Made by a program: the position numbers and the translations under genes. DNA of 64,000 nucleotides from assembly GCA_016192705.1 (NCBI GenBank), contig JACPTQ010000049.1, positions 2,180-66,179 of the forward strand, written 5' to 3'. The stretch comes from Deltaproteobacteria bacterium (GTDB lineage Bacteria > Myxococcota > JACPTQ01). Numbering within the stretch: position 1 is the first letter of the stretch; the number at the start of each line of letters is the position of its first letter. A model generated the notes under the pieces. The model did no database searches, was not told the origin of the DNA, and was given only the letters and a program-made list of their open reading frames with translations. This document shows positions 1,578-26,151 of the stretch, piece by piece.

Positions 1578-1664
1578 GGTGTGCCGCGTAGAGGAGGTGC
1601 CCGAAAAACAGATTGCGGAGCTCAGGAATTTGCGCTTCGCAGCGTCAGATCGGAAAATTGGCGC

Positions 1665-2645
1665 GTGGCACGCGAAGCACAACTGACGCGAACGTGGCAA
1701 CTCATCACGAGCCTCGACCACCATCAGAACGGCCTAACTGTCGAGGAGCTTCGTGACGAGCTGCGCGTCACGGAGCGAACGGTGTACCGGGACCTCGCCG
1801 CGCTTCAAGAAGCCGGCTTCCCGATTTTCAGTGACGCGGGCTCAGGGGTCGCCCGAAGGCGGTTTGTCGAGGGGTATCGGTTCGTCAAGGCGCTGCCGCT
1901 CAACGTCAAAGAAGCCGCGGCACTCGCGCTTGCGGGGGACCTCGTCGGGAGCTTTCATGGGACCTTTTTCGCCGACGCGATGAAATCGGCGTTCGAAAAA
2001 GTTCGCGGAACGCTGTCGCCCGAGGCGCTCGATTACGCGCGGAGCGCGGTGGGAATCCTTGGTGTCAGCGCGACGAAGCGGCACAATTACGAGAAGAAGG
2101 CGGCGATCCTTGCGACACTGCACGAGGCGACGCGCCTGCGGCGACAGGTCGAAATCGTCTACGAGTCGTTTTCGTCGAACCGCGTGGCCAGGCGAATCGT
2201 CGACCCGTATACGCTGCACCTTCATGGCGGAACGATTTACCTGATTGCTTACTGTCACCGGCGGCGCGATGTGCGGCAGTTCGTGGTTGACCGAGTTCGA
2301 AGCGCGAAGACGCTGACCGAAACATTCGAGGTTCAAGAGGGCTACGACCCAGAGCGCCACCTCGCATCGGCGTTCAAGATGTTTCGCGGAAAGCCTTTCG
2401 TGGCGCGGATTTGCTTCGAGCGCCGCGCGGCGCGCTACCTCCGCGAGCGGACGTATCACCCATCGCAAACGATTCGTGACTTGAAGGGCGGCGCGATCGA
2501 AGTCACGCTCGAAGTTTCCGGCGTCGACCAACTCGCGGCCTGGGTCGCCTCGTTCGGCGGCGACGCGACCGTCCTCGAGCCCGACAAGCTTCGCCGCGCC
2601 GTCGTTCGGCGCGCGAAGGGGACGCTGGGGCGATATGGCAGATAA
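1665..2645 (+). CDS. HTH-WYL-WCX transcriptional regulator (PafB/PafC/YafY-like)
   Basis: wHTH LTVEELRDELRVTERTVYRDLAALQEAGFPI. WYL core RRIVDPYTL...YLIAYCHRRRDVRQFVVDRV. WCX-like tail WVASFGGDATVLEP. Start trimmed to GTG 1665. Confidence 0.9.
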   Translation: MAREAQLTRTWQLITSLDHHQNGLTVEELRDELRVTERTVYRDLAALQEAGFPIFSDAGSGVARRRFVEGYRFVKALPLNVKEAAALALAGDLVGSFHGTFFADAMKSAFEKVRGTLSPEALDYARSAVGILGVSATKRHNYEKKAAILATLHEATRLRRQVEIVYESFSSNRVARRIVDPYTLHLHGGTIYLIAYCHRRRDVRQFVVDRVRSAKTLTETFEVQEGYDPERHLASAFKMFRGKPFVARICFERRAARYLRERTYHPSQTIRDLKGGAIEVTLEVSGVDQLAAWVASFGGDATVLEPDKLRRAVVRRAKGTLGRYGR

Positions 2646-2670: not shown

Positions 2671-4923
2671 TCATGCGGTCGTTGCTGATGGACCGCTCAA
2701 ATCCACCTCATCGCGCACAAACCTCCATGAGCGAATCTCAAAAAAACGTTCTGCGAACAGTCGCCGTAAGGCAGAGACCTTTGCCGAGTCAACGAAATGG
2801 GTGCGGTCTGCAATGACGACGAGCTTTGACTTGGCGCGACTCATCGCAACGTTAACCAACCGGTCGCCTGTTTCACCGCTAAAGAGGCGACCAACCTTTG
2901 TTCCGTCACATTCAACGAGATCAATCACGACGACGTCGAATTCGCTCCCCTGAAATGCGTGAACAGTCCCGATTGAAACACGGCGTTCGGATTCAGCCCC
3001 AGCGGGTTGCGACACGAGGTCCTGGAGGAGAAGGCGAAGACGTGCGACGTGTGCGCGATACGGCGCAATGACGCCAATCCGAGCGGTCTTGTTCAAGCGA
3101 CAATAGGCTCGCGTGAGATTCGCTGAAAACTGCGCTGTTCCGGCGTTAACCCGAGAACCACCGGCTGTCATCAGCACCCCAGATCCAGGCATGCCTCCTA
3201 CGTCGATGAGCACCGCAGCCTTTCCAGAACCGGGTGGCAAATCGACCGCCCTGCGACGCTCAGGATCGCCCATGTTCACATCTGATTTTAGGCGCCCGCC
3301 GTAAAAGACGCTGTTCACGCAGGCGGCGATTTCGGGGGCCATGCGCCTTTGATGGACGAGCATCGCGTAGTCGGAGCGCTCCGATGGGCCAGCCAACTCA
3401 GAAGAGAAGCCTCGATAAAAGAATGCATCGCGATGCAGCCATCGCGCGGCAAGTTCCCCCTGCGAAATGGCAATTGGACCGAGCTGCTTGAAGTCCCCCG
3501 CGAGAATGAGGCCTCGAGACGCACAGGTCGAAACAGCCACGGCGCTCGCAGCAGAGACCATGCTGCTTTCGTCGACGACCGCGATGTCGAACTGGCCATT
3601 CGCGATGCCGCTGTCGCTCACGGCCTGAGCGATGGTCGTAAACACGACTCGAGACTTTTGGAGATAGCACGAGACAACGTCTTTCAGCAGTCTTTCGAGA
3701 GTCGCGATTCGGCTGTTGACTTCTGCGCGAGACGAAGCATCACTTCGCGGCAATCGATCGCGCTCGATCCGCTTTTGCTTTAGCTCACCGAGGATTCCCT
3801 GCCTTTCGGCACGATACCGAAACAACCCGGGGTATGCGAACACATCGGGATCCCTGGGATACCCGTAACGGACAACCAACCCCTCCTGAAGAAGCCCCTC
3901 CAGCACGGCGCGAGCAGAGCGCTCGAACGCCTTTACCGTCGCGACCGCGAGTCGATCCACGGCAACGTTGGCGGTTGCGACACCGATCACTCGCAACCCC
4001 GAGGTGACGAGTGTGGCGATAACCCGCCCGAGCGTATGAGTCTTTCCCGTTCCGGGCGGTCCCCAGATCACAAAGGCCGCGGGCTGCTGATGCATCCGAA
4101 GTACCGCTGCGGATTGAGCGTCATCGAGGTCAATCAATACGGGTTCTGATGAGATTGGTAGCGCCGGCGCCGAGGCGCTGCGCTCGACAATCGCTTTCGC
4201 CAGAAACGAAGTCGACGGGTCGATCCGTGCGATCGCGTCTCGGAGACGTTCAAGCAGCCAGTCGTGATTAGGCTCGAGCGCAATGGGCCTCTCGAACGCG
4301 ATACTCAAGTCGAGCCGTTTCTTACAGGCGACCCATACTGTATTGTCAGCTTCATCTATGCTCACCACGATGGCGTCGAACGACGCGTTGGACGTTGTCC
4401 TCAGCAGCGCCGGCGCGCCTTCGGTGACAGGTACGGGCTCGTCGGTGTCGCGCTCGCTTAACATGAATTCGAAAACAAACGGATACTCATCGGCACTCAG
4501 CTGCTTTCGAAGTCGCCCGCCCAAGATTGGAAGCCTCAGCTTCTTGCTCTGATCGCGCACGGCCCGGCGTTCCAACGATATGGCCTCGCACATCTCTTTC
4601 AGCTGGTCTGCGAGGGTACCGGAAGCCGGATGAGTGGCTTCCGGGCCCAGTGACAGGCGTCGCTCTGGGTCTTCAAGTTTCGCCATCAGCTCAGGAAAAT
4701 CGCGGTTGATGGTGTGCCACTGGGGTTTCCATTTGTGTAAACCACACCTCACGAAATACCTTGGATTAGCGGAGATCATGCTCCCCACCCGGCTCGCCCG
4801 TGATCCCGTACCGGCTCCCATAACGACGAATGCGATTTGCGTGAAGGTCAGAGGCACGCAGCGGTCGCTCCTCTGGTACCACATCTTCAGGATGGATATG
4901 AGGAGGTCGGAATCAGTCATCAT
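2671..4923 (-). CDS. SF1 (UPF1/DNA2-like, AAA_11/AAA_12) helicase with N-terminal putative winged helix
   Basis: Motifs GPPGTGKT, VDESSM, GDFKQLGP, QRRM, TVHAFQGSE, NVAMSRAK. Start is ATG 4929, 4923 or 4920. Confidence 0.88.
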   Translation of the reverse strand: MMTDSDLLISILKMWYQRSDRCVPLTFTQIAFVVMGAGTGSRASRVGSMISANPRYFVRCGLHKWKPQWHTINRDFPELMAKLEDPERRLSLGPEATHPASGTLADQLKEMCEAISLERRAVRDQSKKLRLPILGGRLRKQLSADEYPFVFEFMLSERDTDEPVPVTEGAPALLRTTSNASFDAIVVSIDEADNTVWVACKKRLDLSIAFERPIALEPNHDWLLERLRDAIARIDPSTSFLAKAIVERSASAPALPISSEPVLIDLDDAQSAAVLRMHQQPAAFVIWGPPGTGKTHTLGRVIATLVTSGLRVIGVATANVAVDRLAVATVKAFERSARAVLEGLLQEGLVVRYGYPRDPDVFAYPGLFRYRAERQGILGELKQKRIERDRLPRSDASSRAEVNSRIATLERLLKDVVSCYLQKSRVVFTTIAQAVSDSGIANGQFDIAVVDESSMVSAASAVAVSTCASRGLILAGDFKQLGPIAISQGELAARWLHRDAFFYRGFSSELAGPSERSDYAMLVHQRRMAPEIAACVNSVFYGGRLKSDVNMGDPERRRAVDLPPGSGKAAVLIDVGGMPGSGVLMTAGGSRVNAGTAQFSANLTRAYCRLNKTARIGVIAPYRAHVARLRLLLQDLVSQPAGAESERRVSIGTVHAFQGSEFDVVVIDLVECDGTKVGRLFSGETGDRLVNVAMSRAKSKLVVIADRTHFVDSAKVSALRRLFAERFFEIRSWRFVRDEVDLSGPSATTA

Positions 4924-4930
4924 CGTCATC

Positions 4931-5100: not shown

Positions 5101-7146
5101 TCAAGCGCCGCCGACAACTTTCATGGCGGCTGTTTTCGGGTCCCCATAGAAGATTGGGTCCACGTGCTCCATGATGTCGGCGCTCACGTCGAGGAAGTTC
5201 CGCTTGTTCTCGATCGGGATGAGGGCGCGTTTAGCACCGTTGTCCATTGCGACTTGGAGCGGCTCCGTGAGCGAGCGGATCGGCTTGATGTTCCCCTGGA
5301 CGCTCATGTCTCCGAGGATGAGCAGACCGGGGCTGACGGATGCCTTTCTCAACGCGGAGTAGCTGGCAACGAAGAATGCCACGCCAGGCTCGGCCTCAAC
5401 GCGGTTTGCGAGCAGGTCAATAACCTCGACGTGAAGGTCGGAAACATCGAGGTCGCGCGCGATGCCGAGGTCCGTCTTCTTGGCGTGCAGGAAGCTGAAG
5501 GCTCGCTGGAGGGATTCCTTCATCACACCGGCGACGCCGCCGGCCAGCTTGAGTTTGCCCGTGCCGTTCGAGACTGAGATTTCCACGCGGAAGAGACCGA
5601 CGGTGCCGTCCGACGTCACGCCCGCACTGTAAACCGTACCGGGGGAGATCGGATCGGTCGAGATGAGATCGCGCCCGCCCTGCTCGGGGACGCCGACGAA
5701 TCTCTCCTCTCCGGTTTCCTGAAGCGTGTAGCTGAACGACGTGTGATAGTACTCAAATGAGCCCATTTTCTTGAGTTGTTCCTTCACGCGCCTTCGCCCT
5801 TCGAGTGCAAGCTCAAGGATCTCGCCGAGTTCATTCGGCGTGACGACCCCATGCGGGAACAGGATTTTCACGAGGCCCGACACCGTCTTGCGGACGGCCT
5901 TGCGGTCGCGGGCGTTGAGGTGCGCGCCAAGCGAGAAGTGGCGATCGATGGTCTCAGTGAAGTTGTGCTTCCGCATTTCGCGAAGCGCCTCGGCGAGGTA
6001 GTCGACGACGAACCCGTAGTGGTTCGTGAAAAGGTCGTTCCGCATCTTCGGGATCTCCCAGCCCGGGAGGTAGAAGTGTATTCGGTCGATAAAGGCCATG
6101 TCGTCGCGGATGATGTCCGGCATCGGCGCGAACAGGTGTCCCGTCTGAACCATCACGTCGACGGGCTGGTTCGTGTTGCCGAACATCGCGATGCTCGCGT
6201 CGCCAGAAACCGCCTCCTGGCCACGCTGGAAGGTGCCGGATTCGCAGTAGGTTTTCATAGTCGTGATGACCTCCTTGGGCATTTTCTGAAGGTCGGCGAC
6301 TTCGTCGAATCCGACGACGTCCCAGATTTGAACCATGCCCTTCTGCCGGCCGGACAAGTGGCCGAAAAGGTTCGCGACCGTCGTGCCGCCCGTGAGCAGC
6401 GCTGAGTACGGCGACACTTCCTGCACCACGTAGCTCTTGCCCGTGCCGCGAGGGCCAAGCTCGACGAGGTTGTAGTTGTGCTCGGCGAGCGGGATAAGGC
6501 GCACCAGAAAGAGGAGCTTGAGGCGCCGCGACATGTCGCCCGGCTCGTACCCCATGCTTCGCATGATGAGGTCGAGCCACTCGTCCGTCGTGAGCTCGCC
6601 CCGGACGCGACGGTACTCTTCGAGGTCGAACGTCGCGATCTGGATGGGCGTGAGCTTGTCGATCCAGAAAGGATTCTTTCCACCGGCCTCTTCGTCGGAC
6701 TGGAATCGCAGATCGAGCTGGGTCCACACGCCGCCCATGAGCAGGCGCTCGTAGTCGCGCACGTACTGCGTTGGAACGTGGAGAAACTTGTTTCCGAAGT
6801 TTACCGCCTCGGCCCAGTAGTCGGAGTCGACCAGGCGGACCTTCACCTTGTCGATGAACGTGTACCTCCCGTTCTCCTTGACCTTGCTCTGCGCCTTCCC
6901 CGACTCGTCGGGTCGGATGTAATTGTTGGCGAGCGTGTCGTTGACGACCTGCAACCCCATCTGGATCGCCACCTCATCAGACGACGCGCAGTACTTTCCG
7001 AGCAGATACTCGAGCACGAAGACAGGGACGTTCGCACCGACCTTCACCTTGCGGACGAGATCCTTGCGAACGACCTTCCCCGCGAAGAGGCGGTTGACCT
7101 TGTCGTCGAGTGCGTCGCGTATCGGGGTTCCGTTGCTCATGTTCAT
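5101..7146 (-). CDS. brxL: BREX Lon-related protein BrxL
   Basis: GKVVRKDLV...NVPVFVLEYLLGKYC, NLVELGPRGTGKS, VVGFDEVA, AFIDRIHFYLPGWEIPK, Lon-like C-terminus. ATG overlaps the pglZ stop (TGATG). Confidence 0.95.
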   Translation of the reverse strand: MNMSNGTPIRDALDDKVNRLFAGKVVRKDLVRKVKVGANVPVFVLEYLLGKYCASSDEVAIQMGLQVVNDTLANNYIRPDESGKAQSKVKENGRYTFIDKVKVRLVDSDYWAEAVNFGNKFLHVPTQYVRDYERLLMGGVWTQLDLRFQSDEEAGGKNPFWIDKLTPIQIATFDLEEYRRVRGELTTDEWLDLIMRSMGYEPGDMSRRLKLLFLVRLIPLAEHNYNLVELGPRGTGKSYVVQEVSPYSALLTGGTTVANLFGHLSGRQKGMVQIWDVVGFDEVADLQKMPKEVITTMKTYCESGTFQRGQEAVSGDASIAMFGNTNQPVDVMVQTGHLFAPMPDIIRDDMAFIDRIHFYLPGWEIPKMRNDLFTNHYGFVVDYLAEALREMRKHNFTETIDRHFSLGAHLNARDRKAVRKTVSGLVKILFPHGVVTPNELGEILELALEGRRRVKEQLKKMGSFEYYHTSFSYTLQETGEERFVGVPEQGGRDLISTDPISPGTVYSAGVTSDGTVGLFRVEISVSNGTGKLKLAGGVAGVMKESLQRAFSFLHAKKTDLGIARDLDVSDLHVEVIDLLANRVEAEPGVAFFVASYSALRKASVSPGLLILGDMSVQGNIKPIRSLTEPLQVAMDNGAKRALIPIENKRNFLDVSADIMEHVDPIFYGDPKTAAMKVVGGA

Positions 7147-9740
7147 CACACTCCAAGTCGTACCGGGATGTCCGCCGGCGATCGATACAGCTCTGCGTCC
7201 GTTGCCGGGTCCTGCACCACGACACGGAGCGCCGGCCCGCTCTCGTCGCTCAAGAGAAACGCGACCGTCGTGGGCTTCCCGGGCTGCAGCATTACGCACC
7301 CCGTCGCGCGATCGAGCTCGGCCTCGATCGCCATCCCTACGCTGCCCACCTGCCTGCCTGATGCGGTGAGCAGCGGGCGCACGAGCAGCCCGCCAACAGA
7401 CGTGCTTCCGAGATTGATTTGCTCTGTGAATGTAAGCGAGACGCTGAAGATACGGTTGGAAACCACGTTGGGAAGGCCGCTTACGGTAACCGGACCAGAT
7501 GCGAGCTGAACCCCCCTCTCAGCCCTCAAGCGAACGGTCAGTACCGGAACAATTGCCTCCTGCAGCGACAGCCCACCGTGGTGGAATGCGAGGTCTCCGC
7601 CGGCCTTGAAGACACCGCTGCCAATGGGGAAAACAAACTCGAGATTCGACGCATAGCCCAGCGTCGATGCTTCCACTCTAATGCATCCAGCCGGAGTGGT
7701 CCCACCGCGGCCAATCCAGCACCGACGGTGAAGCTCGACCTCGTGCCCGCCGGGTTTCTCGATCCGCATCGACTCGTCGCGATCGGCGGGGAAGAACAGA
7801 TGGCCGTGATCCGCGGAGACGACCGAGTGCTCAACGCCAGCCGCTGCGAGTCTCCGGATAGCGCGCGCGAGGTTGTCGATCACGGTGTCCATCACCTGGC
7901 GGGCCTGATGGGAAAACCCGGTCTCGCCGGCGTGATCGATTTCCTGCGACTTGACGACGATGACCTGCGCGCCCTCGATCTTCCTCGCGAGTTTCGACGC
8001 CTGTAGGCTGAGGAGTTCGTCGAGGCCGACGTGGCTGAGCTTAGGGACCTTCGCAGAAGCGAACTTCTTTCGTGCCGATGAGTCCGGAAGGAATGCATCT
8101 TCAATGCGCGCGCCGAGTACGCCATCCTGCTCCACGACGCTGAAACTCGCGGACGCTCCCGGCTGTAAAGCCGCCATTCCAACTGTTGTGATGCTCGGCA
8201 GCGCGCAGATGGCGTGCCGCGTACTGACCTCGGCGCTCTTCGGCAAGCGCTCGGCCAACTCTACGCCCATTTCGAATCGCATAGCGTCAACCAGGAAGTA
8301 CGCGAGGGGCTTCGGGCGGTCTGCAACTGCCTCCCTATAGACGCAAGTCTGGTGCAGCACTCCAGGAGTGGCCCACTTGGCCTTCGCGAGAGCACGAGTG
8401 AAGCCCTCTGCCATCGCATGGCACGCGTCTTCGTACGCTCGGCGGACGACACCAAGGGGGCGCTCCTCCGGTTCTTCCTCAAGCTTCGTGATCAGGACTT
8501 CGAGCCGCCGCTGCAATTGGTCGATCCGATACCAACCGTCCTTCGACGCGTACGCATCGATCCACGATACGGGGCCATTGCCGATCTTCGCCATCGCGGC
8601 GCGAACTGCGACTATTGCGCCGCCAAGTTCGGCCATCCGGCGGCACGTTTCCCATTGCGCCTTCCGCCCGACATCGTGGTCCAGCCAGAAGCTGTTCTCG
8701 CGTTCGGTGACGATTGCCAGCGCCTCGTCGAACCCCTGCTCGGCGATGAGCGCTCCGCAATGGGAGAGGAGCGCGCGCTCCTCAAAACGGAAAGTGTCGA
8801 TCGAGCCGAGCGCGTCGGCTGCTATCGGCGCATTCCGAAGCCCGAGCTCCTTCTCGACATGGTCCGCCAGGTTCGGGTAGGCGCTCGCGAAGCTCGTTCG
8901 GAGACGACGGGCCAACTCTCGGACGGCGCTTTCATTGTCCTTCGTCTTCGGCGCGGGCACGGCGGCAACGCTCGGAGGAGGGGGGCAGCGCAGGTCCGTC
9001 CGGAACTCGCCCGCGAGGACATAGCGCAAGGTGATAGCCCGCACCTTCGAGATCGACGCATTCTCGGGAAGCTCCGCACCGAGGCGCGAGCGAATCAGCT
9101 TGATGAGCTCGCGCGTCGCCGCCTTGGTTTCGATGGCGGCGTCGCGGGAGTCACTGGCAAGCCACGCACCGAGGAGCCCATCGTTGCCGGCGGTGTCGTG
9201 GAAGACGGACTTCAAGATCGACGGCGGCTCCGTCGATGTCGTGTCAGCTGCAGCACGAGCAAGGTCCTCGTAAGACACCTTACGGTCGACCGGCAGCATT
9301 TCGTCGACAACCCCCAGCGTGTACTTCTGGAGGAGTACGTTCTTAGCCAACCGCTTGAGTTGGGGCTCCCAGGTCGTGCCGGCCTTCTCGATCTCCATGA
9401 GCACGGAGCCGCGCCGATCGCGTTCACGGCCTGGGATGAAAAGTAGAGTTGGTTCGGGGGAATCGGCAGCGGCAACCATCTCCACCGCGGTCCGCACTTC
9501 GAAAAACGACCCCGAAAACTCGGCGATCCAGAACGCCTTCCCCGCCGCCTCAACTTCCGTAAGGCCGACTGAAATCCGCGCGTCGTCTTGTGCTGCCAGC
9601 TTTCGACTCCGTTCCGTTGCCTCAAGCTCGCCGATGAACGCCTCAAACTCCCGCCTCGGGTCGTACCAAACAACGATCTTGTTCGCCTTCAACTTATCGG
9701 AGAGCTGCTTAGCGACGTAATCGTGGAGGGGATGCGTCAT
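7146..9740 (-). CDS. pglZ: BREX phosphatase PglZ
   Basis: VDAMRFEMG, LPSITTVGMAAL, VSADHGH, FHHGGLSLQEAIVP. ATG 9740 overlaps the upstream stop (ATGA). Confidence 0.95.
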   Translation of the reverse strand: MTHPLHDYVAKQLSDKLKANKIVVWYDPRREFEAFIGELEATERSRKLAAQDDARISVGLTEVEAAGKAFWIAEFSGSFFEVRTAVEMVAAADSPEPTLLFIPGRERDRRGSVLMEIEKAGTTWEPQLKRLAKNVLLQKYTLGVVDEMLPVDRKVSYEDLARAAADTTSTEPPSILKSVFHDTAGNDGLLGAWLASDSRDAAIETKAATRELIKLIRSRLGAELPENASISKVRAITLRYVLAGEFRTDLRCPPPPSVAAVPAPKTKDNESAVRELARRLRTSFASAYPNLADHVEKELGLRNAPIAADALGSIDTFRFEERALLSHCGALIAEQGFDEALAIVTERENSFWLDHDVGRKAQWETCRRMAELGGAIVAVRAAMAKIGNGPVSWIDAYASKDGWYRIDQLQRRLEVLITKLEEEPEERPLGVVRRAYEDACHAMAEGFTRALAKAKWATPGVLHQTCVYREAVADRPKPLAYFLVDAMRFEMGVELAERLPKSAEVSTRHAICALPSITTVGMAALQPGASASFSVVEQDGVLGARIEDAFLPDSSARKKFASAKVPKLSHVGLDELLSLQASKLARKIEGAQVIVVKSQEIDHAGETGFSHQARQVMDTVIDNLARAIRRLAAAGVEHSVVSADHGHLFFPADRDESMRIEKPGGHEVELHRRCWIGRGGTTPAGCIRVEASTLGYASNLEFVFPIGSGVFKAGGDLAFHHGGLSLQEAIVPVLTVRLRAERGVQLASGPVTVSGLPNVVSNRIFSVSLTFTEQINLGSTSVGGLLVRPLLTASGRQVGSVGMAIEAELDRATGCVMLQPGKPTTVAFLLSDESGPALRVVVQDPATDAELYRSPADIPVRLGV

Positions 9741-10807
9741 GAAGTTCCCATGCTGTTGGCAAGCTCCAGGTATCGTGCGGCAATCCACGCTATTCTGGGG
9801 GGGCCGCCAATTCCACGCCCCGTTGGATGGTTGTCTACGATCTGTTGGGCAAGCTTAGGAAGAAGAGACGCCAGCAAGAGATCAGAAGATGTCGGGTCCA
9901 GGGTGTATCGGTCATGGCCTGCTGCAACAAGTTTCTCCGACAAGATAGCTAGCGCTTGCTGCGCGCGCGCGTCGACGTCTCTTGCCTCTCCAACCAATTC
10001 TTCGACCTGCTGTGGGGTGGTGATTCCTAATTGTTGAAGCTCGTCGAAACACTGCCCAGCATGGTTGGTCAGCTCCACACTTGGAAACCACTTGCGCAAT
10101 CGGGCTACGAAATCGTAGACGTCCTCGAAAGCCCCCGTCTGCTCCCTTAATCGCCGTTCCGTAGCGGCAAGCAATTGACTGATGATGCCATCGCCTGTGC
10201 GACTGAGGTGGCCCAGCGACCCAAGGAGTTCTTGCTCTGGTTCCGAGAGCCTTCCGCTCAGCGGTTTGTAACCGAGATCATGTTCTATTTCGTTCCACAC
10301 ATGGGACATCATGCTGCAGACTTGGACTTCGCAAGGAGTGTTGGCAAGATTCGCGTACGTACCAACCAGTTCGTCGGGCCGCAAATACACCTCGGAGTGG
10401 GCCGCACGGTAGAAACTGCCCGGATTTGCCGCATGCTTGTCCTTGCGATCAACATCAACACCTCCGCCAGCGTTGCCGCAGAAACGTTTCATGATCTCTT
10501 GGACCACCTTCACTTCGTCGTTCTTGTCATACGTTGCCACCCGAACGGCAGCCAGGTCGCGAACAGCATTGAACACTGACTCGACGGTTTTAATGAACCC
10601 CGGCGTCGCTTTCTCGATCAAACGAATCTTGCCGTCGAAGCTCTTGGAACTTTTGGCACGCGAGGTGACCTGTGCGCGAATCGCGTTTCCTTCCACCACT
10701 TCTGAACGACAGATGTCCGCAACGCGGGCGCTGAGTTTCAAATACCGGTCATACTCACGTTCATATCTAGAGACGGCCTCGGCAATTATCGTATCTAAGT
10801 TCGGCAT
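9737..10807 (-). CDS. RelA/SpoT-family small alarmone synthetase-like protein with C-terminal extension
   Basis: RAKSSKSFDGK, DLAAVRV, YRAAH, CEVQV, HVWNEIEHDLGYK. No hydrolase domain. Confidence 0.88.
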   Translation of the reverse strand: MPNLDTIIAEAVSRYEREYDRYLKLSARVADICRSEVVEGNAIRAQVTSRAKSSKSFDGKIRLIEKATPGFIKTVESVFNAVRDLAAVRVATYDKNDEVKVVQEIMKRFCGNAGGGVDVDRKDKHAANPGSFYRAAHSEVYLRPDELVGTYANLANTPCEVQVCSMMSHVWNEIEHDLGYKPLSGRLSEPEQELLGSLGHLSRTGDGIISQLLAATERRLREQTGAFEDVYDFVARLRKWFPSVELTNHAGQCFDELQQLGITTPQQVEELVGEARDVDARAQQALAILSEKLVAAGHDRYTLDPTSSDLLLASLLPKLAQQIVDNHPTGRGIGGPPRIAWIAARYLELANSMGTS

Positions 10808-10810: not shown

Positions 10811-12883
10811 TTACGCCTCCGCGTCTAACGGTCGTCGACGAGAGCCGGCCTTTTTCGCGAGACGTCCAACCTCCGTTTGGAGGATGCTCGCGAGTGCTGC
10901 TTTTACGCCGGGTGAGCTGCGCTCCCGGACCAGCTCGTTGATCGACCGCATTGGTGTTTTGCGAGCCGTCCACTTTCCGTTGCTGTCCTCGGCCCAGAAC
11001 ACGTCTTCCAGTCCGTGCGCGATCGCAAGACTGCGATCTGAAGCGCACCTAGGAACGACGCGCTCGGGCCAGAGGTGCATCGCCAGGTGCGCCCAGTCGT
11101 ACTTGCCTTCGCAGAGCGCGTTCCAGGTGGACTTCAGCGCCTTCTGCCAGGGCTTGTTCTGCGGGACGAGCCGCCAGAGCGGCGCGAAGTTGATGATGAC
11201 GCCGTCGTCCAAGGTCGGCTTCCAAAGCGGCGCGACGCGCTTCACCTCGTCGAGGAAGGCGCGGAGCTCGTCGACGAACGTCTCCTGTGCAGCGAGAACC
11301 TTCCGCTGGGCGGCGGTCGCGCCGTCACGTAGCTCGCTCATGAGCGACTCGAGGCGGCGCTCCTCGTGCGCGAGCTTCGGTGCTGCGTAGTCGTTCTGCA
11401 CGCGGAAGAGCGTGTCTTTGCTGAAGGCGTGGATGTAGAGCCACACCGAGTAGCTCGCCGAGGGCGTCGCAAGCTGCCAGTAGATGGGCGCCTTGCGACG
11501 GCTCTTCGAGTACATCCTGATATGCAGTGGGAAGAACTCCCTGGCCAGCCACCCACGGAGGTTCTCAGGCGCCTCGACGCGAACGCGCTCGGCGACCGCG
11601 CGGGTGCGCGCCGCGAGATCGGCGGCGTGGCCTTGGTCGTCGACGAGGATGTCGGGCCGTTCCGCCGGCTCTTCGCCCTCGGGGTACATGCCCGGAGAGC
11701 GCAAAGGCAACGCCTGGAAGGGCTCGGGCTCGAGTGGCACCGGACGCTCGCCCGTCGCGAGGCGGGGGTCGAACCGTGCGAAGGCGGCGCCGACGAGCCA
11801 CGAACCTAGAGTCTCGACCCCAGCGCCACTCGACACCCCCGACACGTCATCATCACCCAAGTCATCGCCGTCATCGTTGTCTTCATCCGGTGAGGACTCC
11901 TCCCTCTCAGCAGGCGCATCTCCAGTGGAGACAAGGCTTGCAGGGTCCTCCGGGCGGATGCCGTACAGACTGAACCCCGCCTGGTCGATTTCCCTCTGAA
12001 GCGTCTCCAACTCGCGAACGATGGCGTCAGGATTCAGTCCCGCGACCTTCTCATTCAATCCGCTCGGCAGAATGAACGCATGCGAGGTCTCATTGACCGT
12101 GTCGAGCATTCGCCTGAGCGACCAGGCACGGCGCGCGAGACGTGCGAACGTCGCAACGTCGCTCGTCGAAAGGTTCGCCAGCGGTGTCTTCTGAATGACG
12201 CCCACTTCGTAGGAGCGGGCAACCCCTCCGCGGCCAGACGGCTCGGCGGCAGCGAGTTGAAACTCGATGAGCGACCGAAACACTTGACTGTTGGCAAGGG
12301 CTCCAAGGGCGAGCAAAAGCTCAACGTCGTCGTTCTCGACGATAACTGCAGGTCCCTTCGAGCCGAAGATGCAACCGGCCGGCATCACGCGCATCGAAAG
12401 GTCGCTCTTGGTCCGAAGCGTCCAGGTGAGGCCAGGGCGAAGGTAGAGCTCCCGGCTCGGAACAATCGCAAACTTGTACTCTCGAGTGGTAACTCGCTCA
12501 GCGAGCAACTCGCTCCCGTCAGTACCCCAGTTGAGAAGCATATGCGGGTCTGCGTAGAACGGTGACCACCGACCGCCCTTCACGTGCGGTGCCCATTTGC
12601 TACCCGCACATTCCCACGCCAGTCGCAGGAAACGGCCGTCGTCATTGGAGTTGACGCCTCGTTTCGCAACGCGACCGCCTGCTTCGAATCGAGAGAACTT
12701 GGCGAAGGCTGCCCGAAGAGTCTCGCTCACCCAGTAGGCGAACGGAGAACCGGGCACGCTGCGAAACGTCGTCGGATTCACTTCGAAGATTCGGCGATCG
12801 GCTCCTGCAGCACTAATCGCAGCGCGGAGCGCACCATCCTTGTCGTGCACCTCTTCGAGGACGCGGATGAACACCGTGCTCAC
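10811..12883 (-). CDS. pglX: PglX C-terminal half (target recognition and C-terminal domains)
   Basis: VPGSPFAYWVS, HIRMYSKSRRKAPIYWQL, LDDGVIINFAPL, YDWAHLAMHLWPERV. GTG start overlaps the upstream TGA. SD AAGGAG. Confidence 0.85.
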   Translation of the reverse strand: MSTVFIRVLEEVHDKDGALRAAISAAGADRRIFEVNPTTFRSVPGSPFAYWVSETLRAAFAKFSRFEAGGRVAKRGVNSNDDGRFLRLAWECAGSKWAPHVKGGRWSPFYADPHMLLNWGTDGSELLAERVTTREYKFAIVPSRELYLRPGLTWTLRTKSDLSMRVMPAGCIFGSKGPAVIVENDDVELLLALGALANSQVFRSLIEFQLAAAEPSGRGGVARSYEVGVIQKTPLANLSTSDVATFARLARRAWSLRRMLDTVNETSHAFILPSGLNEKVAGLNPDAIVRELETLQREIDQAGFSLYGIRPEDPASLVSTGDAPAEREESSPDEDNDDGDDLGDDDVSGVSSGAGVETLGSWLVGAAFARFDPRLATGERPVPLEPEPFQALPLRSPGMYPEGEEPAERPDILVDDQGHAADLAARTRAVAERVRVEAPENLRGWLAREFFPLHIRMYSKSRRKAPIYWQLATPSASYSVWLYIHAFSKDTLFRVQNDYAAPKLAHEERRLESLMSELRDGATAAQRKVLAAQETFVDELRAFLDEVKRVAPLWKPTLDDGVIINFAPLWRLVPQNKPWQKALKSTWNALCEGKYDWAHLAMHLWPERVVPRCASDRSLAIAHGLEDVFWAEDSNGKWTARKTPMRSINELVRERSSPGVKAALASILQTEVGRLAKKAGSRRRPLDAEA

Positions 12884-14718
12884 GGTCGCACTCCTTCGGC
12901 CTTCTGCAGGCAGTACGCAGCCGCCTCGACGACGGCTGTGTCCATCACACCGAGTCCGAGGTCGGCTACAACAACGGGAGGCGCGTCTTGCAGGATGACT
13001 TCCTCACGCCAGCGCTGGAACCGTGGCAAATAGAAGCCAGTTCGCGAGGTGATTGCGCCGACTCGCCCACCCGTCTTCAGTAGCTCAATGCCACGCTCTA
13101 CGAATGCAGCGTAGATGTCATTCTTGGAGCGCGGGTATGCCTTCTCGAAGTCCACCTTCGCGCGCGCACTTCCAGCACCGAACGGAGGATTCATCAGCAC
13201 GACATCAAAGGTCTTCTCAGAGACACCTAGCAGGGCGATGCCGTGCGTCGCGTCGTCGGCGAAGAGTCGCCGTCGCGTACTTGCGCGTGAGCCCTCGTCG
13301 CTCACGAAACGTGCGAGCGCCGCACGGATTCGCTCCTCGGGTGGAGCGAAGAGGTCGCCAGTCTGGCCCCGCTTGCCTTGGCGCGCGACGAGTTGCTCAA
13401 CGCGCAGGAGCAGCCCCATGTCGCCCGCAAGATTCAGAGAGCCTACGAGCGAGCTGAACACGCGCCCGAGCTCGGTGTCGCCGAGCTTCGCCACGAACTC
13501 CTTGGCGATCTGGTCATCGGCGACGAGCGGCTCGGCGACGACGATATTCGAACGACGGATGTGTGGTCGATCCGCGCGTCCGACGTTGAACTCCCTGTAC
13601 GCCTTCTGCGCGCGCATCCACAGGGCGAGCTGGGCGATCTGCGCGCAGCGCGGGTCGATGTCCACGCCATGGAGGTTGTGCGCGAGCACGAGCCCTGGGA
13701 CGGCACTCCGCAGCGCGTCGAGGCTCGGGTAGTCCTCGGCGAGCGTCTTGCCCGTCGCTTCGCTCGTCGGGCTCTCCGGGTCGGCATGTGCCTCCTCGTA
13801 GATCGCGAGGAGCAGGTCGAACGCATACAGGAGGAAGTGGCCGCTGCCGCACGCCGGGTCGAGCACGCGCAGATCACGCGGATCCTTCTTCGCGCGCGGC
13901 GCAAACTCCTCGCCGGGCTTGCGGACCATGTACTCGCAGCGCTCGGCAAGCACCGTCTTCGTGCCGCGCATCTCGTACCAGATGCGCCCGAGCGTGTTAT
14001 CCGTGAGAAACCGCACGACGTAGCGAGGCGTGAAGAACTGGTTGCGAACAGCCAGCTCGCGACCGTTGCGCGGAACCTGGCTCTCCTCGCGCATCTTTTT
14101 GCGCTCGTCCTGACCGTTAAAGAACTGGTAGACCCAGCCGATCGTCTCGTCCTCGCCCCACACGCGGGCGAGCTCGGTGCCGTTCAGGATCTCGAGGAGC
14201 TGCTCGAAGGTGGCGCGTTTCGGCCAGAGCACGCTCGACGGATCGCGGCGGTCGAAGAGGACCTTCACCTCGGTTGACATCTCGTCGAAGAGCGACTCGA
14301 TGTAGAGCCGGTAGCACGCACTCTCGGGCAGGAGCGGCAGGCCCGGAGCCATGCCGCAGAACTCGCGGTAGCCCGCTGACTGCTCGCCCTTGGTGATGCA
14401 CTCCTGCACGAGCTCGCGGGCCTCGAGCATCTTCAGCGCCACGAAGCGGTTGAGCGTGGTGAACGCGGCGTCGCGCAGGTAGTCCGCGACTGAATCCGCA
14501 GCGTTCATCCCGGCGGCGCGCTTGTGCTCGATGGCCGCGACGATGCGCTCACGCTGGAAGGCCTGACGGGGCGAGAGGTGGCCTCCGGCCCTCGCGGCCA
14601 CCGCGCCGTGATGGTGCACGTCGAAGTCGCCCTCGAGCTGCGCGGCGAAGTCCTCCTCGAGGAGCTTCCGCGCTCGCTGGGTGGCGCGTTCGATGGCGTT
14701 GCGTGTGTCCTTGTCCAT
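12880..14718 (-). CDS. pglX: PglX N-terminal half, N6-adenine methyltransferase
   Basis: AFTTLNRFVALKMLE, NQFFTPRYVVRFL, VLDPACGSGHFL (motif I), NPPF (motif IV). Confidence 0.92.
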   Translation of the reverse strand: MDKDTRNAIERATQRARKLLEEDFAAQLEGDFDVHHHGAVAARAGGHLSPRQAFQRERIVAAIEHKRAAGMNAADSVADYLRDAAFTTLNRFVALKMLEARELVQECITKGEQSAGYREFCGMAPGLPLLPESACYRLYIESLFDEMSTEVKVLFDRRDPSSVLWPKRATFEQLLEILNGTELARVWGEDETIGWVYQFFNGQDERKKMREESQVPRNGRELAVRNQFFTPRYVVRFLTDNTLGRIWYEMRGTKTVLAERCEYMVRKPGEEFAPRAKKDPRDLRVLDPACGSGHFLLYAFDLLLAIYEEAHADPESPTSEATGKTLAEDYPSLDALRSAVPGLVLAHNLHGVDIDPRCAQIAQLALWMRAQKAYREFNVGRADRPHIRRSNIVVAEPLVADDQIAKEFVAKLGDTELGRVFSSLVGSLNLAGDMGLLLRVEQLVARQGKRGQTGDLFAPPEERIRAALARFVSDEGSRASTRRRLFADDATHGIALLGVSEKTFDVVLMNPPFGAGSARAKVDFEKAYPRSKNDIYAAFVERGIELLKTGGRVGAITSRTGFYLPRFQRWREEVILQDAPPVVVADLGLGVMDTAVVEAAAYCLQKAEGVRP

Positions 14719-18175: not shown

Positions 18176-18751
18176 TCAGAAGATCTTCGGGCGGTAGTTG
18201 TGCTCCGGATCGAGCGCGCCCATGAAGCGAAGGCCCGCAGCTCCATCGAGGTCGCCCGGATAGAAAAGAATTGTGGGCACGTGGACCTGCCCCTTGAGCT
18301 GCTCGAGGAGCGAGAAGGTTCGATAGACGGGAAAGAGCGCTCCCGCCCGCAGAACGAACACGACGTCTCGGAGTGGATCGGGATCGTCCGGCATCCTCGC
18401 CGCAACGAGCTCAACGAGCGGTTTGTACTCGGAGAGCACCGAGTGGACAGTCTCGACGATGATCTCCACGCCTTGCTCGTGCTCAGCGGTGAACCAGTCC
18501 TCGAGCGGCCGCTGTGAACGCATCGCTTCGTCGAGACACTCAGCGAGCGAAATCCGTCGGATGCGCTTGCCCTTCTGAGTCAGCCGCGTTTCGAGCATCG
18601 TGACCTGCTTGCGAAGCTCGAACTCCTCCTCGGGGTCGTAGCGGAACAGCGCGTACGGCATGTCGTGGTACGCGCTGATTCGCTTGCGCGGGTCGGCCAG
18701 CTCGAGCACAGGCTCGAGGACGTTCTTGATGCGCAGTTCGAGGTCGCTCAA
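18176..18751 (-). CDS. brxB: BREX protein BrxB (DUF1788-like)
   Basis: YALFRYDPEEEF, GALFPVYRT, PTILFYPG...LRFMG...NYRPKIF. Position between brxA and brxC. Confidence 0.9.
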   Translation of the reverse strand: MSDLELRIKNVLEPVLELADPRKRISAYHDMPYALFRYDPEEEFELRKQVTMLETRLTQKGKRIRRISLAECLDEAMRSQRPLEDWFTAEHEQGVEIIVETVHSVLSEYKPLVELVAARMPDDPDPLRDVVFVLRAGALFPVYRTFSLLEQLKGQVHVPTILFYPGDLDGAAGLRFMGALDPEHNYRPKIF

Positions 18752-19533
18752 GCAACCATCCTCTCTGCGTACTCGCGTGAATTGGAGCAGGGCAGCGTGA
18801 GCTGCACGAGGCTTCCGGCAACTTGGTATTCGAGCTTCCGGAACTGGTGAAGCCGCAGGAGCTCCTGCTCGACGTCCGACGGCCGCATCAAGAACATGCG
18901 CCAGTCCTGGGCGTCGATCACCTTCTGTGGGCTCTGCTTCTCCTCGCGCAATGCGTGGAGGAGGTAGAGGAAGCTTCGCTCCGGAAGGTGATAGGACGCG
19001 AACTCCTTGACGACACTGCCGCGGAGAAGACCGAAGTCGACCGCCATCTTCATCAAGCCCGCGGCAACGCGCTTGAGCGTCGTGTCAGTCCATGCGTGTT
19101 CCGTTGTGCCGCCACGCTTACGGATACCTTTGAGGTAGCTGTGCAGCTCCTCGGGTCGGACGCGGAAGGCGCCCCCGTCGTACGTCGGGAAGAGCCAGTT
19201 CTGGAGAAAGTCGCGCAGCAGGAACTCGTCGCGCGTGATGTGCCAGAGCAGAAGCGGCCTCCATTCGTCGAGATCGCAACCGTTCTTCGCCAGCACGACT
19301 AGGGCGTGGTCGCGGCCGTCGGGTTCGAAGCGTCGGTTCAGGACTTTCGCAACGTCGCGAAGCCAGGTCGAGGTACCGGCGCCGATGAAATTCTCCTCGC
19401 GCAAACGGTCGAGGTTCGCGCGCTTCGATCGCGCGAAGTCCCACGCGGCGAAGACCGACTGGGTCTCGTCGATCATTGCGCCCTTCACGATGGTGAAGGA
19501 CGAGGCGACGTTGGCGCGCGAGGCAAGCTTCAT
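18748..19533 (-). CDS. brxA: BREX protein BrxA (DUF1819-like)
   Basis: LLRDFLQNWL, WTDTTLKRVAAGL...DFGLLRG. Coupled stop/start overlaps on both sides. Confidence 0.85.
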   Translation of the reverse strand: MKLASRANVASSFTIVKGAMIDETQSVFAAWDFARSKRANLDRLREENFIGAGTSTWLRDVAKVLNRRFEPDGRDHALVVLAKNGCDLDEWRPLLLWHITRDEFLLRDFLQNWLFPTYDGGAFRVRPEELHSYLKGIRKRGGTTEHAWTDTTLKRVAAGLMKMAVDFGLLRGSVVKEFASYHLPERSFLYLLHALREEKQSPQKVIDAQDWRMFLMRPSDVEQELLRLHQFRKLEYQVAGSLVQLTLPCSNSREYAERMVA

Positions 19534-20105
19534 GAATTTCCCCGTCGCGCGTATGGGACCGCCAGGGCTCCCATTTCGGCGCGTGCGAACCCAAGTGCCA
19601 GTAGCGTCACGTCGGTATCAGTCGGAGAGAACACGCCGGGCAAAGGGACTGCGCGCCCTTCCGCGGAGCGTCGCAAACGAGATAGGCCTTCGGCGTCGCG
19701 ATCGCTGACCACCTCGAACGCGCGCAACGCCGCGACGAGATCCGTACCGCGGAGCGTTTCGAGTTTCTGGAAGAACGGCTGCCATTCGGCCGAGCGATCG
19801 AGCCAGTGCTCCCATCGCGTGTCGAACTCCTCCTCGATCGCTTCTGGGAGGCGCCAGAGCGTCACGCACCCCGGAGGCTCAAACACCTCGGCGCAGCGAT
19901 GCGCGGCTACGGCGAAAACGGAACGTGCCTGCGCGAAGTGATGCGTGCGAGGAAAGCCGCGACGAAGGGCTGCCGCTCCAAGGTGCCCAAGCTGCCCCTT
20001 CGTGTTCCACCACTTCGCGAGATCCATCTCGCCGAAACGTGCGATGACGAGGCGGAGCTTCAGCAGGCGGTCGAAATCAATTGCGTGGACGCTCACAATA
20101 GCCAT
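19530..20105 (-). CDS. brxE: BrxE family protein
   Basis: LRLVIARFGEMDLAKWWNT...RRGFPRTH...FEPPGCVTLWRLP...PY. First gene of the operon. Confidence 0.85.
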   Translation of the reverse strand: MAIVSVHAIDFDRLLKLRLVIARFGEMDLAKWWNTKGQLGHLGAAALRRGFPRTHHFAQARSVFAVAAHRCAEVFEPPGCVTLWRLPEAIEEEFDTRWEHWLDRSAEWQPFFQKLETLRGTDLVAALRAFEVVSDRDAEGLSRLRRSAEGRAVPLPGVFSPTDTDVTLLALGFARAEMGALAVPYARRGNS

Positions 20106-20820: not shown

Positions 20821-21435
20821 ATGGGATTTGCAGACACGACGCGACGACCGCCGAAAACGCTGACGGAAGTGGAGCAGGCTCGTCTGCTGAAAGTGACCGG
20901 CGAGCATCGCGCGGGGTTTAGGGACCACGTGCTTTTCTCTGTGGCGCTGGGCTCCGGATTGCGCGTGTCGGAGATTGCGGCGCTCGACGTCGGCGATGTC
21001 TCGCACGACGGGAAACGCGTTCGACGCCGCGTCACGCTCCGCGTATTCAAGCGCTCGTTCAAGAATGGTGGCGCGCAGGAGGTTTTTCTACCCGACGCGC
21101 TCATTTACAAGCTGGAAAAGTTCCTTCGATGGAAGGCAGCTCGCGGCGAAAGTCTCGCGCTCGACGCCCCGCTCTTTGTAAGTCGCAACCACCGCCGCCT
21201 CTCTGCCGGCATGGCGAGTGCGGCGTTCAAGACTTGGCAACGTCGCGCGGGATTCGACGGCCTGCACACGTTTCACGCGCTTCGCCACTCGTGTCTCACG
21301 AACGTCTACAGAACCACGCGCGACATTCGGCTCGTGCAGCGCGTCGCCCGCCACAAGAACATTGCGACAACGACGATTTACGCGGCCCCCACGGACGAAG
21401 ATATTCTTCGCGCTGTTCGGACTCTGCCCTGCTGA
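20821..21435 (+). CDS. Small tyrosine recombinase (catalytic domain only, 204 aa)
   Basis: GLRVSE, FHALRH, ARH, TTTIY catalytic set. SD GAGGTG. Confidence 0.92.
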
Positions 21436-21441
21436 TCGACG

Positions 21442-21475
21442 AAAGTCGCAATTCGCGTATTGAATTTGCGGCTTT
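21442..21475. terminator. Hairpin between convergent genes
   Basis: AAAGTCGCAATTC-N7-GAATTTGCGGCTTT. Confidence 0.5.
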
Positions 21476-21484
21476 GGGGCGTCT

Positions 21485-22195
21485 CTAACCCCGTGGATTC
21501 TCGTCGCCGTCGTTGGCCGAATTGAGACTTTTATGTGGAACCTTCAATTCGTCCGGGCCGGTATCGGCGATGGGGCTTGAAGCCGGTTTGACGTATTCGA
21601 TTTCGCCTCGGCATTGCGCGCACAGCTCGGCAACCATGCCACATGCTGCGGGCGGGGCGTTCCTCGCGGCGCGCGCCTCGGCGTATAGGCGCTGTAGCTC
21701 GTCGAGCGACGGCAGGTCGCGACGCCGTGATTCCTTGCTGGCCTTTGTCTCGGCGATAGCCTCTTTCAAACGAACCGCGGCCGCCACGTCGGCGATCGAC
21801 GGCACAGGCACTCGGTCGTCATTCACTGCGGATTCAAACAAGCCGACAAATTTGTCCAACAGTTTCTCAAGGTCGGCGATCGAACGCGCCGCCGGGCGCG
21901 GCGCCCCTTTCGCTACCAGCGTCTCCGCGTTGTCGCCTATGCCTTTGAGAAACTTCTCGCGCCGTTTCAACCAGTTCTGCTTTTTCGCGAAATAGCCGAG
22001 CAACGACCGGCTGACGCTGTGTTTCTCGGACAACGCGCGGATGGACAAGAACGTCCGCGGCTCCGTCCCATTTTCGCCGTCGGCCAGATCGGCCCCGTAC
22101 ACATACTCCACCTCGATTTCGCGCCACGGTATCGACGGGCGATTTGCCTTTTTGTAACGCCCTCGTCGGACCTGTTGTTGAATGAAGTCGCTCAC
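21485..22195 (-). CDS. HTH protein resembling the N-terminus of phage small terminase subunits
   Basis: IPWREIEVEYVYG...LSIRALSEKHSVSRSLLGYFAKKQNWLKRR, followed by a helical region. Confidence 0.55.
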   Translation of the reverse strand: MSDFIQQQVRRGRYKKANRPSIPWREIEVEYVYGADLADGENGTEPRTFLSIRALSEKHSVSRSLLGYFAKKQNWLKRREKFLKGIGDNAETLVAKGAPRPAARSIADLEKLLDKFVGLFESAVNDDRVPVPSIADVAAAVRLKEAIAETKASKESRRRDLPSLDELQRLYAEARAARNAPPAACGMVAELCAQCRGEIEYVKPASSPIADTGPDELKVPHKSLNSANDGDENPRG

Positions 22196-22199
22196 GACT

Positions 22200-22996: not shown

Positions 22997-23024
22997 CGAC
23001 GAAGCACCTGGAGAGCCTCCGCCG

Positions 23025-23210
23025 TTAAGCGGCCCCGTCGCGGCCGTTTGAGCCTCGTTGGCTACGTTCGCCTCCAGTTGCCCCGCGGCCGTCGCGAGGC
23101 TGTGCTGTTTCCGTCACCAGCGATGGCGCAGGTAGCGGCGTCGATGCGGCCTCGCCCGGCGCTGCCTCCATCTCCGACGCGAGACCTTCCTCGAACTTCA
23201 GATCAGCCAT
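23025..23210 (-). CDS. Small hypothetical protein
   Basis: 61-aa ORF with a purine-rich SD, co-oriented with the replication module. Confidence 0.35.
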   Translation of the reverse strand: MADLKFEEGLASEMEAAPGEAASTPLPAPSLVTETAQPRDGRGATGGERSQRGSNGRDGAA

Positions 23211-23338
23211 CGTGCTTTTCCCTTCCTTTCAGCGTCCGCTTCAGTGACGCATTTCCTCTCGTTCACGTTTCCGGCTGAGGCCTCAAGCTTCATGACCTGA
23301 GCCTGCCATGAATCGCGTTTTTCTCACGTCGCGCCCCC

Positions 23339-23776: not shown

Positions 23777-23783
23777 TTGCGCC

Positions 23784-26146: not shown

Positions 26147-26151
26147 TATCT

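Follow-up and report, generated by a model that had tools for sequence, protein, structure and literature searches.

RelQ and RelP (SAS1/SAS2), which are small alarmone synthetases (SAS), are described as housekeeping enzymes in the main text of Jimmy et al. (PMC7229694). Other SAS are linked to defence. CapRel, according to the main text of PMC9712102, carries a C-terminal pseudo-zinc-finger domain (pseudo-ZFD), a beta sheet with a connecting helix, which serves as both antitoxin and sensor. PANGU Pag1B, as outlined in its report (10.64898/2026.04.06.716658), is a toxic SAS (toxSAS) of the GRel type that has a C-terminal DNA-mimic domain and is activated by a nucleoid protein; it forms an inactive oligomer, is not toxic alone and makes pppGpp. 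For bacteriophage exclusion (BREX) loci, a 2026 survey describes "backup" nuclease effectors (PMC12839542), and the terms SpoT, alarmone, ppGpp and pyrophosphokinase do not occur in its main text, supplements aside. The main text of the CapRel paper (PMC9712102), in turn, makes no mention of BREX, and, leaving aside the supplements of PMC12839542 and PMC7229694, we found no description in the literature of a RelA/SpoT homologue (RSH) family gene in BREX or Dnd/Pbe loci. Here, we describe such a gene in a 64,000-nt stretch of contig JACPTQ010000049.1 of a Deltaproteobacteria bacterium (hereafter, the window), where a protein of 356 amino acids (P0001; its gene is called the Rel gene below) is encoded inside a Type 1 BREX operon, between pglX and pglZ.

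The window carries brxA, brxB, brxC, pglX, pglZ and brxL in one operon, which is the core set of Type 1 BREX, together with a BrxE-family gene. The Rel gene and its parts are as follows:

9737..10807 (stop codon included), reverse strand: P0001 gene, 356-aa RelA/SpoT-synthetase-fold protein (open reading frame call, Pfam PF04607, AlphaFold model)
10816..10820, reverse strand: GGAGG, 8 nt 5' of the P0001 ATG, within the end of the gene for the PglX C-terminal half
10145..10807, reverse strand: residues 1-221, N-terminal helix, SYNTH (nucleotidyltransferase) core and long helix 189-221 (RelQ/RelP matches)
10313..10330, reverse strand: residues 160-165, EVQVCS, the family form of the ExQxRT strand
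9740..10144, reverse strand: residues 222-356, family-specific all-helical C-terminal domain
9737..9740, reverse strand: ATGA overlap of the pglZ start codon and the P0001 stop codon

The gene immediately 5' of the Rel gene encodes the C-terminal half of a split PglX, and the ATG of P0001 at 10807 follows its TAA by 3 nt. At the other end, the TGA (9739-9737) shares bases with the in-frame pglZ ATG at 9740. From this ATG, residues 3-864 of PglZ match positions 2-860 of the 860-position PADLOC PglZ profile, and it is therefore the true pglZ start; an alternative GTG at 9788 would give a 52-nt overlap with the P0001 gene. Judged by these junctions, the Rel gene appears to be translationally coupled to its operon neighbours. 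Its GC content (0.548; 0.594 at third codon positions, GC3) lies below that of the nine BREX genes (0.61-0.66 and 0.70-0.83, respectively). Both of its neighbours are BREX genes, and HD_4 matches in the genome occur only on other contigs. Moreover, no conserved adjacent antitoxin was seen, the gap to pglX being 3 nt, the overlap with pglZ 4 nt, and the neighbours varying with the slot that the gene occupies. The original prediction, which had been made from the window's letters, thus described the surroundings well: a start 3 bp past the pglX stop, an overlapped pglZ start, a gene richer in AT than its neighbours, and no adjacent hydrolase or antitoxin gene. Elsewhere in the same genome, a second HD_4 protein (324-aa frame, C58:13420-13785) is encoded besides the long RSH on contig C50.

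We found that the Rel gene has many relatives and that one well-supported clade of their unnamed family of ~355-aa proteins, as a new finding, occurs almost only in one BREX lineage, in two slots and as an optional component. A word-indexed search with P0001 returned 639 proteins at E ≤0.001; among the 120 of these matches that were listed, query coverage was 78-100% and nearly all proteins were 349-384 aa long. When cluster representatives were searched exhaustively, 1948 passed E ≤0.001 and 108 passed E ≤1e-30. P0001 therefore appears to belong to a large family of full-length proteins, whose N- and C-terminal domains seem to belong together because the relatives cover the query to this extent and a search for short proteins with the C-domain alone gave two singletons. 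We do not take these two short proteins as a sign of a split form.

When 86 loci with relatives (3 from genome contigs, 3 from genomes and 80 from metagenomes) were queried with the window's BREX proteins, the same BREX lineage (BrxE-BrxA-BrxB-BrxC-PglX-PglZ-BrxL) was found in 16 of the 19 loci with a Rel identity of at least 51%, and BREX genes were found in none of the 67 loci with an identity of 47% or less. The copies of this BREX clade are 51-61% identical to the window's Rel. Seven of the 16 (L001, L003, L019, L020, L023, L025 and L049) have the gene between PglX and PglZ, as in the window (slot A), and nine (L011, L012, L015, L016, L017, L018, L022, L024 and L026) have it between BrxC and PglX (slot B), so that the tally with the window added is 8 to 9. 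In a Rel tree of 39 rows, from which 48 loci had been dropped (alignment below 300 aa or identity below 38%), all BREX copies formed one clade with those of L002 and L014 (support 100/99), the latter pair being the sister of the window's copy (98/95). The slot labels on this tree need two changes. The Rel gene has long been part of one BREX lineage, where it has two slots, and is no one-off insertion. At the same time it is rare in the phylum, being present in 3 of 400 other genomes at E ≤1e-20.

Furthermore, the closest relatives of the BREX clade have a second link to DNA-modification systems. Its sister clade (96/98 in the Rel tree) contains the metagenome loci L027, L028 and L053, in which the Rel gene overlaps the start of a gene for an 870-aa protein with a sigma-70 region-4 helix-turn-helix; this ~870-aa protein is followed in order by PbeA (PLD plus helicase, E 1e-267), a small CxC protein and a PbeC-like ATPase. 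In L028, genes of Dnd phosphorothioation (DndC and DndD) and for a cysteine desulfurase adjoin the Pbe-like operon. The same gene order lies beside dndE and dndD on two conjugative Rhizobium plasmids, NZ_CP007048 (L124) and NZ_CP021031 (L127), whose copies have 53% identity over residues 1-274. The Rel family is associated at the level of clades with BREX and with Dnd/Pbe.

What surrounds the other members of the family? We scanned the neighbours in 16 non-BREX family loci (81 proteins) and found recognised defence genes within 5.5 kb in 7 of them, namely Pbe in three, SIR2 with a helicase, a kinase-ORC pair with methyltransferases, a type I S subunit with GmrSD and Schlafen, and an AbiJ-like gene. 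Three further loci had phage (terminase, portal), plasmid (RepA, SLT) or integrase genes. Searches of phage records gave one weak match, in a Vibrio phage (26% identity, E 8e-7). The expectation that homologues would be found in defence islands agrees with these counts, the non-BREX relatives lying mostly among defence or mobile-element genes (7/16 plus 3/16). Two of the loci deserve separate mention. In L046 (1327-5192), a distant member lies between the type I S subunit and GmrSD, with an HD_4 gene two genes downstream and then Schlafen/AlbA_2; the HD_4 protein, which resembles small alarmone hydrolases, could be a trans-acting antidote in that clade. In L029 (1-8754), a MatE transporter gene is present as two pieces (2-1444 and 7018-7491), and the ~5.5 kb that separate them, where the Rel relative is found, resemble an island that was inserted into this gene.

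The Rel gene is, however, not a constant component of Type 1 BREX. In a sample of 401 genomes, brxC matches at E ≤1e-30 were found in 28 (a tally that includes the unpublished G195, on which no other result depends), and in 6 of these 28 brxC identity was at least 55%, one of the six, G076, being a 2.7-kb contig. A complete locus of the lineage, with a BrxC identity of 63% or more, was present in five genomes, and the gene was found in three of them (G000, G039 and G234). In the other two, G344 (BrxC 81%) and G031 (63%), the operon is complete, the Rel gene is missing and no gap remains in its place. In a PglZ tree of 11 rows, the G344 protein is the sister of that of carrier L015 (100) and lies inside the carrier clade (98). 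Because it is nested among carriers in this way, its sequence points to a loss of the Rel gene in G344; G031, on the other hand, sits on a long basal branch. With two of the five complete loci lacking it, the Rel gene is an optional accessory and not a core BREX gene, which upholds the accessory status assigned to it at the outset.

The sequences also indicate that modules have been exchanged between BREX loci, because the Rel and PglZ trees disagree on L012, which groups with slot-B loci by PglZ and with slot-A copies by Rel (100/100), and because the window's copy has a low GC content. The marked GC dip of that copy would fit a recent swap. In addition, the pglX-pglZ interval holds another defence system in two loci of the lineage, at the following positions:

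L011:14905-16820: Septu insertion between pglX and pglZ
L012:14915-16902: Septu insertion between pglX and pglZ

Each insertion encodes Septu PtuA (E 1e-142 and 1e-168) and PtuB, and the interval is for this reason a real accessory slot, as had been claimed when it was said to house accessory defence genes. P0001 occupies the interval that holds Septu in these loci. Unlike the nuclease effectors of the BREX survey (PMC12839542), it is an RSH-superfamily nucleotidyltransferase. The operons of L011 and L012 hold three layers, BREX, Septu and, in the other slot, the Rel gene.

Could P0001 then be a subunit that belongs to the machinery of this BREX lineage and of Pbe systems, with a signalling or regulatory task performed through a nucleotide signal or by direct binding, and with no autonomous function? 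The gene is coupled in translation on both sides, it has been kept in one BREX lineage, as a single clade, through the deep divergence seen in the Rel identities, and in the sister clade it is the first, overlapping gene of Pbe-like operons, which makes two independent links to DNA modification. Such a subunit would not be expected to be missing from two complete loci of the lineage, one of them nested among carriers, or to occupy two slots with differing neighbours, and some members of the family belong to a phage, to plasmids or to unrelated islands that have neither BREX nor Pbe. A candidate for direct evidence of this kind was P0285, a 958-aa protein that joins the equivalent of Rel residues 29-305 to the N-terminal half of PglX. 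We rejected it as Rosetta-stone evidence: this sole fusion is found on a single contig, in a slot-B locus, with ~55 unrelated residues at the joint, and it is probably a frameshift, to judge from its sequence. We consequently regard a subunit role as unlikely, and the occurrence outside BREX, the optional presence within the lineage and the movement between slots argue for a self-contained module.

The catalytic part of P0001 resembles that of an active enzyme. Pfam RelA_SpoT (PF04607) is the sole Pfam match of the protein (residues 50-181, E 1e-9, 39.1 bits against a cut-off of 27), and no HD hydrolase domain is present. NCBIfam gave just a far sub-threshold match to YjbM, PADLOC gave no family at E ≤0.01, and among the PHROGs the N-domain matched only phrog_9640 (function unknown). 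EVQVCS aligns with EIQIRT of YjbM/RelQ. In an alignment of 67 relatives, the consensus of the catalytic strand is CEIQVCS, and R50, K52, K60, D84, R89, Y133, H137, E160, Q162, E173, H176 and Y180 do not vary among the 67 sequences, nor among the 39 taken from the loci, in which C164 is likewise constant. Since this consensus is shared and E160, Q162 and C164 do not vary, EVQVCS is a hallmark of the family rather than erosion. The positions that align with YjbM are the ATP-binding basic residues, an Asp, the Tyr/His of the G-loop and the Glu of ExQ. The invariance of the catalytic residues points to an active enzyme. The first reading of the sequence had recognised both the RelA/SpoT domain with its catalytic-type motifs kept and the EVQVCS spelling, and both observations are confirmed. 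Within the same genome, an open reading frame on contig C17 (L006:979-2070) has a weak RelA_SpoT match (25.3 bits) in its C-terminal half and is not a paralogue of the P0001 family.

Comparisons of sequence and structure both place this domain closest to RelQ and RelP. The AlphaFold model of P0001 (predicted local distance difference test, pLDDT, 95.6; predicted template modelling score, pTM, 0.91) was aligned by VIA-align to RelQ 5dec with Z 17.4 and a root-mean-square deviation (rmsd) of 2.9 over 182 aligned residues (model 10-219), and to RelP with Z 17.0 (6ewz) and 16.3 (6fgk). Lower scores were obtained for long Rel (13.1), CapRel 7ztb (12.1), exported SAS (11.7), Tas1 (11.5) and FaRel (7.2). 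Foldseek returned RelQ and RelP at E 5e-7. A profile of the P0001 family, searched against PDB chains, found RelQ/RelP at E ~1e-10 and also long Rel, and it found no CapRel, FaRel or Tas1 at E up to 10. RelQ and RelP are thus the best matches to residues 1-219 by sequence (E ~1e-10) as well as by structure (Z 16-17), and the catalytic domain of P0001 appears nearer to them than to CapRel. The shared features are the basic residues, the Asp, the Tyr/His and the ExQ Glu, which align, and a predicted oligomer. In contrast to RelQ/RelP, P0001 has an extra helical C-domain of ~135 aa and CExQVCS in place of ExQxRT, and its family is patchy and found in defence operons and on mobile elements. The N-terminal part is not basic (isoelectric point, pI, 6.2; family median 5.9). 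A nucleotide product is weakly favoured over a tRNA target by this non-basic character together with the nearness to RelQ/RelP.

The C-domain has no recognised counterpart in the collections that we searched. It comprises ~135 aa, is all-helical in the models of both the full-length protein and the domain alone (pLDDT 85.7 in the latter), and follows the long helix 189-221, in which G205, D206 and R219 are invariant. Within the domain itself F227, D229, D232, F233, R236, D309 and R338 are invariant, and its pI of 5.2 makes it mildly acidic only. No Pfam, PHROG or PADLOC match was obtained for the C-domain; Foldseek with the domain alone gave no match at E ≤0.001 (best E 1.1), the wide VIA-align search gave no chain with Z ≥5 (best 4.2), and the Atlas search gave its own family only. 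The original prediction had spoken of an unknown C-terminal domain of ~150 aa, which is consistent with these outcomes apart from its slightly larger size. Among the 16 sequences of the BREX clade, the C-domain was less identical than the N-domain in 117 of 120 pairs (median pair identity 48% vs. 65%); the C-domain evolves faster than the N-domain.

A complex model of two P0001 chains reached an ipSAE of 0.74, compared with 0.00 for the best control, with contacts agreeing at 95% or more over three runs and a partner pLDDT of at least 86. Of 30 proteins solved as pairs of one chain, 20 reached the mark, as did 1 of 23 solved as single chains; these counts are rough, given that an alignment of our own was used. 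The modelled interface runs along helix 189-221 and contacts residues 48-55 and 166-184. P0001 therefore probably forms a homodimer or a higher oligomer according to the model, although this pass may reflect the likeness to solved RelQ/RelP oligomers.

A further explanation is a fused toxin-antitoxin of the CapRel kind, in which the C-domain would keep the active site blocked up to the moment when it binds a phage structural protein, and the enzyme would then pyrophosphorylate the CCA end of tRNA. The plan is indeed the same: as in CapRel (e.g., CapRel-SJ46; main text of PMC9712102), a single gene in mobile or defence loci joins an N-terminal SYNTH domain to a regulatory-looking, more variable C-domain of ~150 aa, with no separate antitoxin. 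In addition, 7ztb does align to the N-domain at the Z score given above, and the faster evolution of the C-domain is as reported there for the CapRel pseudo-ZFD. However, the sequence profile of the family does not reach CapRel, RelQ/RelP are clearly the better structural matches, and the C-domain of P0001 is all-helical, with no beta strand, in contrast to the pseudo-ZFD, which has a beta sheet at its base by the account in PMC9712102. The catalytic part also lacks the basic character of the tRNA-binding type that the comparison with CapRel would call for. In departure from the comparison with CapRel drawn early on, P0001 appears nearer to RelQ/RelP (RelQ Z 17.4 vs. CapRel 12.1, no CapRel by profile at E up to 10, a helical C-domain), and we consider this mechanism improbable, more so than the subunit role.

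Pag1B offers another comparison. By its description in 10.64898/2026.04.06.716658, it resembles P0001 in consisting of a SYNTH domain, a helical linker and a C-domain of unknown family. P0001 differs from PANGU type I in that no nucleoid-protein gene is adjacent (the neighbours are PglX/PglZ or BrxC/PglX) and in that its C-domain is only mildly acidic. By analogy, it is plausible that Pag1B, as outlined there, is a model for the switching on of P0001 by a partner.

The explanation that we favour, with moderate confidence, is that P0001 is a self-contained growth-arrest effector of the SAS type, carried as an optional module and forming a second layer behind DNA-modification immunity. In uninfected cells, the enzyme would be held quiet by its C-domain, by its oligomeric state, or by both, a form of control suggested by analogy with CapRel (PMC9712102) and Pag1B (10.64898/2026.04.06.716658) as described in those sources. 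Phage infection would switch it on, and it would then transfer pyrophosphate from ATP to a nucleotide acceptor, the product being more likely a (p)ppGpp- or (p)ppApp-type alarmone than a modified tRNA. The outcome would be growth arrest or abortive infection, backing the first line that is based on DNA modification.

Several observations weigh against this explanation. Three of the 19 close loci lie outside BREX, namely L002 and L014, which are the same sequence and stand beside a TetR gene, and L021, whose neighbours are uninformative, and 6 of the 16 scanned non-BREX loci have neither a defence nor a mobile-element neighbour. Throughout the family, Cys and Ser stand where ExQxRT has its Arg and Thr, and the acceptor may therefore differ from GDP/GTP. 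The C-domain could be a substrate-binding lobe, not a sensor or inhibitor, since it has seven invariant residues of buried or charged type and the only structures that it resembles, weakly, are helical lobes from CD-NTases (CdnE 6e0l, Z 4.2, rmsd 4.3, 88 aligned; 7x4g, Z 3.7; 7to3, 3.5; 6e0m, 3.3); this resemblance is a lead only. The exchange of modules fits a cassette but does not show what the cassette does. Finally, the defence role is drawn from genomic context alone, because PADLOC 2.0 has no model that matches P0001.

P0001 might also be a passenger without an anti-phage role, whether as an SAS of the stress response or as a module of the addiction type that stabilises the BREX island. 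Three points speak for this: the island is an integrative element by a tRNA-Arg and carries integrase, Prim-Pol and DUF3987 genes; L002 and L014, to which the window's copy is most closely related, have it beside a TetR gene and outside a defence context; and RelQ/RelP, the closest solved relatives, have housekeeping status in the main text of PMC7229694. However, the gene lies inside the operon between core genes, in two slots and in many loci, its spread is patchy, with 3 carriers among 400 other genomes in the phylum, and it is embedded in parallel in Pbe operons. We consider this reading very doubtful.

Besides the growth-arrest effector that we favour, a bolder form of the idea is that this SAS family is a dedicated companion of DNA-modification immunity, tied to both BREX and Dnd/Pbe operons through translational coupling, which would fire when these systems encounter unmodified DNA or are disabled by a phage inhibitor. 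A nucleotide signal would in that case link epigenetic self/non-self discrimination to growth arrest, and the helical C-domain, as a new fold, would be the receiver. We hold this only tentatively and consider it rather unlikely as a whole; the double link to DNA-modification systems is nevertheless the most interesting point of the analysis, and it makes a guard or signal reading worth testing.

The remaining genes of the BREX operon in the window are the following:

5101..7299, reverse strand: brxL (profile matches)
7146..9740, reverse strand: pglZ, 864 aa from the ATG at 9740 (PADLOC PglZ profile)
10811..12883, reverse strand: pglX C-terminal half, 690 aa (PADLOC PDLC02532, E 7e-217; NCBIfam BREX_1_MTaseX profile 637-1209)
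12880..14718, reverse strand: pglX N-terminal half, 612 aa, methyltransferase, with a GTGA overlap with the C-terminal half
14732..~18160, reverse strand: brxC, frame broken by a gap of ~113 nt at 17887 in the assembly
18176..18751, reverse strand: brxB
18748..19533, reverse strand: brxA
19530..20105, reverse strand: brxE-family gene (NCBIfam NF033447, E 2e-46)

Two of these genes are interrupted. The halves of PglX meet at the GTGA overlap, with a GGAG 5' of it, and among 13 loci of the lineage pglX is split at the same joint in six and fused in seven. The split is therefore a recurrent natural form, and PADLOC has distinct models for the two halves. The brxC gap at 17887 lies directly past the Walker A motif. 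In two of four runs of the probable source samples, contigs bridge this site with ~116 extra letters, and in the other two there are loose ends at the site, reading like lost codons. The break is consequently an assembly collapse or a minority variant, and an intact form exists in the likely source samples.

Past brxL, a superfamily 1 (SF1) helicase gene (2671-4929, reverse strand; best PADLOC match MkoA, E 4.5e-59) is followed by a divergent gene for a WYL/HTH/WCX regulator (1581-2645, forward strand), an arrangement that resembles BrxR-type regulators, and by an FHA-domain gene (594-1577). On the other side of the operon lie the following features:

20821-21435: integrase fragment
24488-26191: DUF3987 gene
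26152-27804: Prim-Pol gene
29758-30888: integrase
30990-31065: tRNA-Arg

The region 20821-31065, with its integrases, DUF3987, Prim-Pol and tRNA-Arg, shows signs of an integrative element, and a search of positions 1-31100 of the window for an att-like direct repeat of the tRNA-Arg end gave none.

For the questions of how BREX stops phages and of what follows when a phage blocks BREX, an optional, conserved enzyme of the alarmone-synthetase type in a BREX operon offers a concrete candidate, either as a second layer or as a signal. Through the sister clade in Dnd/Pbe loci, the link to DNA-modification immunity extends beyond one isolated case. With its C-domain of no recognisable fold, the family would add a third architecture to the defence-linked SAS, after CapRel and PANGU GRel.

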